A stretch of DNA of 64,000 bases, taken from positions 15,500,001 to 15,564,000 of the forward strand of contig JBNRSN020000011.1 of the NCBI GenBank assembly GCA_051313645.2. Reading direction: 5' to 3'. Positions 18,766-20,285 of the stretch are shown here, piece after piece. Source of the DNA: Centroscyllium fabricii (lineage: Eukaryota). Position 1 is the stretch's first letter. Every line of letters starts with the position of its first letter. A program made the translations under genes and the position numbers. Below the pieces are notes generated by a model, which worked only from the letters and a program-made list of their open reading frames with translations, ran no database searches and had not been told where the DNA came from.

Positions 18766-19401
18766 GCGGCGTACGTTGGAAACTGCCTCACGCTCTGGAG
18801 TAAGAAATGCCTGAAACAGTCACAGAAAAAATATTTAGAGGTGCGAAGGTGATTTCAAGATGAGGTTTTTGTCAGAACGAGGAAGAGACGGGGTAAAAAT
18901 TTCCACCGTGTTCTCCCACCGTAACTTCGGCAGAAACCCCGGACAAAGGGCATAAGCAGCCGGTGAGAGCTTGGGAGGAGCCCAGTGCAAATTCCAAGTG
19001 GTGATGCCCACAAGTCATTATGTTCCTGGTTTCACCCGTCCACCCCTGGCTGCCACCCAATACAGCTCCATTCACGAAGGCTGATACCAGTCTCCGCTGC
19101 TAAATGCACAACCCTTTATATCTGGGTATTAATTAAAAACTACACAATGCATACAATTCTGACAGTCAGCCACACACTCGTTGGATACACCAGCTTAGAT
19201 TTAAAGGGACAAAATGGGGTATCTCATTTCAAACAAAAATCAATCATGTTTATTCTGCAGTACAAACATTTATGTGGATCTTTACACAGCTCAGCACATG
19301 TATGTATATCTCAGGTAAAAGCCCAAATGCATACAGATATACAGGAGCGTAGAGGACAGCGCGTCTGACACAGCTATTGCTCACAGTGTCTTTTGTGAGT
19401 G

Positions 19402-19800
19402 ATGTGGAGGTGCCGGTGTTGGACTGGGCTGGACAAATGCAAGAAGTCACACAACACCAGGTTATAGTCCAACAGTTTTATTTTAAATCACAAGCTGTCG
19501 GAGCGTCTGCCCCTTCGTCAGGTGAAAGAGAAGCTGACTTAAAGAACGCACATATGGGAGGAAGAGAGAAATCTGATCTCCCACATCATCAGACTGATGT
19601 GTTAAAATATGTTAATATGCCTTTGTGTGCTCTGTCTATCTCTGCTAAGGTGAGATGTGGGAGATCAGATTTCTCTCTCTCTTCCATATGTGCGTTCTTT
19701 AAGTCAGCTTCTCTTTCACCTGACGAAGGGGCAGACGCTCCAAAAGCTTGTGATTTAAAATAAAACTGTTGGACTATAACCTGGTGTTGTGTGACTTCTT
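19402..19800. mobile_element. Penelope-like fold-back element with 147-bp inverted arms, each with a hammerhead-like motif
   Basis: Arms 19441-19587 and 19654-19800 are near-perfect reverse complements. 13-bp TSD TCTTTTGTGAGTG (19389-19401, 19801-19813). Motif TCAC-CTGACGA-A-GGGGC agac GCTCC-[G]AAA-GCTT-GTGA. Confidence 0.8.
19716..19753 (+). ncRNA. Minimal type I hammerhead ribozyme relic (GAAA core mutated to AAAA); mirror copy on the minus strand at ~19488-19525 (GAAA to GACA)
   Basis: CUGACGA core, stem II GGGGC/GCUCC, stem I UCAC/GUGA, short palindromic stem III AAGCUU. Confidence 0.6.
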
Positions 19801-20285
19801 TCTTTTGTGAGTGTTACTCCCCCCAACTTTGATTTAAAAACCAAAGGTATATTCTCAAAATTAAGGTGCCAGAATACACCTAGAATCGCAGAAAGTACAG
19901 CTCAGTAGGAGGTTATTCAGCCCATTCTGCCAATACAGGCTCTGCAACTGAATCTATTCCTTCAAATTCAATTTCCCTGCCTTTTTTGCTATGGCCTTTT
20001 ACATTATTCCCTTTCAAATACTCGTAAGACTCTCTCCCAAACTTTGGTGTCACCTGCAACTCTTTTACGTTGTACACACCATAACCAGCAGTTGCTTGAG
20101 CATAGGTTAAGTTGTATAAAATCGCTTGCCTGTTGATTCGTAGCATCCAACATGTTGTGAAGCCGTTGTCCTGCTCACAGCTGTCTCTGGTTTCATCCTC
20201 CACTATCTCGCCCAAGTGACTATGGTTGAAATAAATGCTGGAAAAACTTAGCCGTTCAGGCAACATCCGTGAAGAGAGAAATGAG

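Follow-up and report, generated by a model that had tools for sequence, protein, structure and literature searches.

A head-to-head pair of Penelope-like terminal repeats with mutated hammerhead motifs in an LMX1A intron of Centroscyllium fabricii

Results

The insertion and its host gene

The window, that is, the whole stretch of 64,000 nt analysed here (Centroscyllium fabricii, assembly GCA_051313645.2, contig JBNRSN020000011.1, positions 15,500,001 to 15,564,000), holds two coding exons of LMX1A on its minus strand and, 4.55 kb into the intron that follows the LIM1 exon, a fold-back insertion flanked by a target site duplication (TSD). This intron measures about 730 kb (G000:C113:14,794,400-15,524,365), with the next LMX1A exon near G000:C113:14,794,400, and the gene spans about 826 kb. 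The features are as follows.

19389..19401, no strand: left copy of the TSD, 13 bp, its last 2 nt also matching the family tail (sequence comparison)
19402..19440, minus: Penelope tail, a 3' extension between the short and the long family 3' ends, ending beside the start codon of the parent ORF (family copies; PMC11167929, available part of PMC8557442)
19441..19587, minus: left arm, a 5'-truncated copy of the terminal repeat (pLTR), tail-bearing, 5'-shorter and LMX1A-sense, starting at about -187 from the family ATG
19488..19525, minus: minimal type I hammerhead motif with GACA in place of GAAA (change at 19497), which the predicted fold pairs into the long hairpin
19588..19653, plus: spacer, with one extra A (19588) within the word ATCTCA, then additional 5' pLTR sequence of the plus arm
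19654..19800, plus: right arm, a pLTR copy with the short 3' end and no tail, LMX1A-antisense
19716..19753, plus: minimal type I hammerhead motif with AAAA in place of GAAA (CpG transition at 19742)
19801..19813, no strand: right copy of the TSD, 13 bp (sequence comparison)
24366..24554, minus: LMX1A LIM1 exon, 95% identical to skate LMX1A
45013..45081, minus: LMX1A first coding exon

The original prediction had described a fold-back with 147-bp arms, a 66-bp spacer, a 39-bp unpaired end and a 13-bp TSD, and all of its coordinates hold. Sequence comparison within the window confirmed the 13-bp TSD TCTTTTGTGAGTG at 19389-19401 and 19801-19813, and the two direct repeats enclose 399 nt. The inverted arms (19441-19587 and 19654-19800, 147 nt each) differ by 5 mismatches, of which a TC-rich tract accounts for three and the GAAA box for the other two (G>A at 19742 on the plus strand; A>C at 19497 read on the minus strand); the spacer occupies 19588-19653 (66 nt) and the unpaired left end 19402-19440 (39 nt). 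In other copies of the family the 39-nt end comes directly after the arm and the 66-nt spacer sequence precedes it, so that the insertion consists of two copies of one family end placed head to head. Judged by these copies, the two segments are family sequence and not foreign DNA, namely the 3' tail and, for the plus arm, its longer 5' part; the length given for the unpaired end stood, but the end itself is the known Penelope tail and the spacer is more of the family sequence. The junction reads ATC-A-TCA, and the continuations of both arms have in common the 6-nt word ATCTCA, which was read by eye. No ORF is present at the locus itself. Two samples (X1 and X2) of a single study, which may be the source individual, yielded contigs that span both junctions with 0 differences (18950-19425 and 19779-20250), and no empty-site joint occurred among the joints listed from the sequencing runs (427 further joints fall outside that list).

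Because LMX1A lies on the minus strand, only the left arm with its GACA motif is in the sense of the pre-mRNA, and the AAAA arm is antisense. The GACA motif is transcribed after its complement, and in predicted folds of the nascent minus-strand RNA its core was paired upstream with probability 1.0 and helix II formed with probability 0.0 at all four lengths tried; the sense hammerhead is thus predicted to be sequestered in the 147-bp hairpin anyway.

Several other features were seen in the vicinity. A second, smaller fold-back of the same family is located in LMX1A intron 1 (43171-43304), with the tail on its plus arm, the short end on its minus arm, a TSD of about 10 bp and both arms beginning downstream of the hammerhead core. 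At 20283-20320 on the minus strand, LMX1A-sense and 470 nt from the fold-back, lies a degenerate hammerhead-like motif of a different repeat family (UUGAUAA core, helix II GGGUC/GACCC, GAAAC), which may be linked to another Penelope family. A direct repeat of about 170 nt (18790-18960 and 20319-20487, 95-97% identical, 1.53 kb apart) flanks the insertion region and probably marks the two ends of a further mobile element or a short repeat present twice. The fragments at 805-1479, 6691-7218, 39665-40711 and 59415-59900, at 28851-29318 with 31440-32027, and at 5688-6083 are presumably pieces of a CR1/L2-type LINE reverse transcriptase, a Harbinger-type transposase with a Myb/SANT-like partner and a hAT C-terminus.

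The parent element

A Penelope-like origin, proposed in the original prediction, was borne out by three loci (L061-L063) in which an ORF for reverse transcriptase (RT) and GIY-YIG endonuclease (EN) lies directly upstream of the same terminal repeat. This parent ORF of about 2.85 kb matches RVT_1 (E 2e-10 and 7e-6), and its GIY-YIG match is weak (E 0.0017, 19.1 bits, under the Pfam cut-off of 22.6), with the motif VVYLIRC-x3-C-x3-WYIGET present; in L063, RT and EN fall within one open stretch of 524 aa. The motifs KPADKGG (DKG) and PCHSNLCKTC (a CX4CxxC linker between RT and EN) are found in L061-L064. The near-full-length parent copies extend over L061 451-4420, L062 3183-6339 and L063 478-4289, with ORF regions broken by stops, frameshifts or insertions, and their pLTRs are arranged in partial tandem in L062 and inverted in L061 and L063; L061 also carries LTR-type element fragments (5636-6999). 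In the protein databases, the nearest matches belong to several sharks and share 79-87% identity, and relatives in turtle and alligator reach 42-49%.

A single ORF with RT and C-terminal GIY-YIG, a pLTR with an optional 30-40-bp tail, and a TSD, all seen here, define EN+ Penelope-like elements (PLEs), and the CX2-5CxxC linker together with the DKG motif defines Neptune, these features being common to Nematis as well (definitions in the available part of PMC8557442). The internal cysteines of the GIY-YIG domain are likewise those of Neptune and Nematis elements. By these definitions and on its sequence motifs, the parent is a canonical EN+ element of Neptune or Nematis type, both clades fitting an assignment by motifs. 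We found no paper on shark Neptune elements in the open-access literature.

The family 3' ends fall into two classes, near the ORF ATG (0) and about 36 nt before it (-36), and the parent start codon sits right at the end of the tail. The Anolis Poseidon element PAc also has two 3' end classes about 36 nt apart that bound the tail, as well as a hammerhead in its terminal repeat (PMC11167929). However, the ORF of PAc begins inside the hammerhead, with start sites 111-118 nt into the ORF, whereas in the shark family the start codon, at which the tail ends, lies about 85 nt 3' of the hammerhead.

The hammerhead motifs

Hammerhead motifs on both strands had been predicted and are seen in both arms, which read UCAC-CUGACGA-A-GGGGC(AGAC)GCUCC-[AAAA or GACA]-GCUU-GUGA, with AAAA on the plus and GACA on the minus strand. 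Positions follow the hammerhead numbering, and the bases of the GAAA box have a catalytic role. Folded in isolation, both motifs are predicted to form helix I (4 bp) and helix II (5 bp), and neither retains an intact core at this locus.

Searching the 7.2-Gb genome with the 32-nt motif gave 13,652 exact matches, against 0 for the reversed control, so the motif is not a chance one. The core box is GAAA in 12,943 of these copies (94.8%), AAAA in 514, G[B]AA in 43 and GA[B]A in 53, of which 17 are GACA. The core CUGANGA ... GAAA ... UH and both helices, I and II, of the minimal type I hammerhead are thus present in the family, as originally predicted, and the counts support GAAA as the ancestral state of the family motif and agree with its presence in the inserted ancestor. 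We based core-state frequencies on these genome pattern counts and dropped a DNA similarity search as biased, since it returned mostly AAAA copies because the query carried AAAA. Subfamily variants retain pairs by one-sided changes (G-U/A-U in helix II; C-G/U-G and A-U/G-U in helix I), N7 varies, and no double compensatory change occurs among them, in counts that include loci taken twice.

A search for minimal hammerheads had been suggested in the original prediction. The Rfam hammerhead families had no match up to E=10 in 17000-22000, where only hairpin-driven miRNA matches below gathering scores appeared, and six sense copies in LMX1A passed the full minimal hammerhead descriptor. The motif call accordingly rests on the descriptor in the available part of PMC4209133 and on our own scan. 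As in the metazoan PLE hammerheads described there, the motif has CUGANGA, an extra base between 9 and 10.1, a helix II of 5 bp, a short helix I and a palindromic AGCU in place of helix III, and such motifs are mostly single and dispersed; the two motifs of the fold-back differ in that each has lost one GAAA base. Dual motifs on opposite strands, 100-700 bp apart, are known from the same source, the available part of which names no shark family with a minimal hammerhead. We infer that the predicted hammerheads were carried along in the insertion as part of the terminal repeat.

Mutation of the hammerhead cores

The original prediction had suggested that a self-cleaving hammerhead in LMX1A pre-mRNA would be harmful, so that core-mutant alleles would be favoured. 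Consistent with this, the GAAA box is hit in both arms while the remainder of the arms is near-identical, the only two differences outside the TC tract being both in GAAA; the GACA on the sense strand is a rare non-CpG transversion (17 of 13,652 copies); and copies without GAAA cluster near the 5' end of the intron, where all five 32-mer matches in the 172 kb ending at the window locus have lost it. However, four of these five are antisense, and no AAAA copy of the cluster, the AAAA arm included, is in the sense of LMX1A; the one motif in sense is predicted to be fully sequestered in the hairpin.

Scanning 864 kb of LMX1A yielded 34 family matches, 24 of which span both core halves, with no depletion by orientation (12 sense, 12 antisense). 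Intact cores were found in 9/12 sense and 6/12 antisense copies (6/11 with a local duplicate counted once; Fisher p=0.40), which, in a test of one gene and 23 copies, runs opposite to the direction that selection predicts. Of the six sense copies that pass the descriptor, five lie outside head-to-head fold-backs. Moreover, single minimal hammerheads showed no detectable cleavage in vitro (PMC4209133, available part), and the Anolis hammerhead requires its protein for cleavage (PMC11167929). Selection on LMX1A is therefore very unlikely to account for the core hits.

The plus-strand change is a CpG transition, as had been noted originally. A CpG that lies outside the core, at a distance of five bases, has undergone the identical G>A change in 420 copies against 514 at the core CpG, so the core CpG decays at about the non-core rate. 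Given core hits in 5.2% of copies and 13 pairs per 100 matches, extrapolated from contig C1, about 5 fold-backs per genome are expected to be hit in both cores by chance. The density of AAAA cores near the window locus is high, four in 172 kb compared with a genome-wide figure of about one per 14 Mb; CpG decay affects 10/32 near the cluster against 19/89 further down the intron, and the local excess of GAAA-less copies can only partly be ascribed to it. Both damaged motifs, one by a CpG transition and one by a transversion, likely reflect ordinary random decay and not protection of LMX1A, even though the pairing of GACA with AAAA is rare.

The four AAAA-core copies, three of them independent and all on the plus strand, are at G000:C113:15,347,507; 15,455,457; 15,458,599; and 15,519,728. 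Local copying as the source of this cluster (C113:15.35-15.52 Mb) was considered and rejected, as the CpG change is the only derived one that the copies have in common, and two of them form a tandem duplicate, a local duplication of about 3.1 kb with two identical family copies (G000:C113:15,455,303-15,458,715).

Pair structure across the family

Thirteen head-to-head pairs occurred among the first 100 listed motif matches, which extrapolates to roughly 1,800 fold-backs of this family in the genome. We assembled 47 pairs from fetched loci and the LMX1A region, leaving out six duplicate loci, and dropped one edge pair for the tail analysis; the loci were chosen by similarity or motif match, not at random. 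A TSD of 10-16 bp was present in 41/47 pairs. In nine very short fold-backs (L033, L049, L053, L054, L059, L068, L070, L071 and L074), both arms start near family -115 to -135, the 5' edge of the hammerhead.

It is hardly credible that the fold-back moves as an independent MITE-like or retrozyme-like unit, or that it serves as a functional siRNA or miRNA hairpin. The hairpin is very stable in the predicted fold (about -280 kcal/mol) and Rfam miRNA models match it by shape, but their scores are far under the gathering thresholds, arm lengths and junctions vary between pairs, no second copy with the window junction was found among 30 loci from the 40 best DNA matches, and 11 fold-backs of this family lie in LMX1A alone. 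Any siRNAs, which the original prediction thought that the hairpin could yield, would for that reason hardly set this locus apart from the others. In addition, non-LTR retrozymes are defined by tandem head-to-tail hammerhead units (available part of bioRxiv 10.64898/2026.07.22.740005), and here two copies stand head to head in one TSD.

The tail was found on exactly one arm in 41/46 pairs (40/45 by a second method), on neither arm in four, two of which have partial tails, and on both in one, in which one arm continues into the ORF. Since 31/54 single copies carry the tail, one-tailed pairs would be expected at 49%, far from the 41/46 observed (p ~1e-8). Where the arms of a one-tail pair are directly joined (28 pairs), the arm with the tail is the 5'-shorter of the two in 14 cases and the longer in 8, the arms being equal in 6. 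The idea that every insertion is two-armed was rejected, as a micro-arm within 80 nt accompanies only 4/54 single copies.

These counts bear on how the second arm is made. One tail per pair, often on the 5'-shorter arm, fits priming at two nicks from two start sites and disfavours self-priming by fold-back, whether of a single cDNA or an antisense template, a reading that has been offered for Adineta Penelope. Self-priming would agree with the subfamily markers, at which the arms of a pair match at 123/135 sites against 51% for random copies, with an overlap of 1-7 nt at several junctions and with the published argument from palindromic junctions (PMC3846280, available part). Yet a strand copied from the first cDNA has to be 5'-shorter, and it cannot gain a tail that this cDNA lacks, which excludes simple cDNA self-priming for those 14 of 28 pairs, the window locus included; an antisense template spanning the tail would be compatible with the pair counts. 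Furthermore, the arms differ at two or more markers in 3/21 informative pairs (L011, L028 and the window locus). At the window locus they differ at 2/5 marker sites, making two templates likelier than one here. Taken together, we consider self-priming improbable as the source of the inverted arm.

Discussion

The locus is a real, non-coding feature and an ordinary dead copy. With a probability of roughly 80%, we read it as two 5'-truncated terminal repeats of a high-copy PLE, set head to head within one TSD, likely made in a single integration and likely decaying neutrally since. Inverted pLTRs, a one-sided tail and a TSD have been described before for complex insertions of EN+ PLEs (PMC3846280 and PMC8557442, available parts), and the present insertion shares with these the head-to-head inverted repeat, the 5' truncation, the 30-40-bp tail at one end and the short TSD. 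It differs in that both copies are pLTR-only stubs of about 190 and 250 nt, and the family TSDs are mostly 10-16 bp long against 8-10 bp in the Adineta examples from the same sources.

A Penelope protein assayed in vitro cuts both strands and extends them, with two start sites that delimit the tail; the protein is predicted to form a dimer (PMC11167929). The simplest account that we can propose here is that the GIY-YIG/RT protein of the shark element nicked both target strands about 13 bp apart and that each nick primed reverse transcription, one at the distal start site, giving the tail arm, and the other about 36 nt further in, giving the tailless arm. Both cDNAs would have stopped early, at about 190 and 250 nt, and been joined at a short shared word; later, each hammerhead lost a core base, one by a CpG transition and the other by a transversion. 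For the family as a whole, we place at about even odds a model in which Penelope integration is a coordinated double priming, with the two nicked strands assigned to different RT start sites and usually served by one RNA or source, so that each two-armed insertion would have exactly one tail and the fold-backs would be fossils of the process, a minority, including the window locus, having drawn on two templates. We found no earlier twin-priming account of Penelope in print within the open-access literature.

With regard to the host, LMX1A, a developmental gene, tolerates many intact minimal hammerheads in sense within its introns, which is in line with these motifs being inert alone. With regard to the elements, the one-tail rule joins two published facts, namely that tails are one-sided and that two start sites operate in vitro with both strands extended. 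It can serve as a prediction for the Anolis in vitro system and bears on the way in which the inverted ends of Penelope elements arise.
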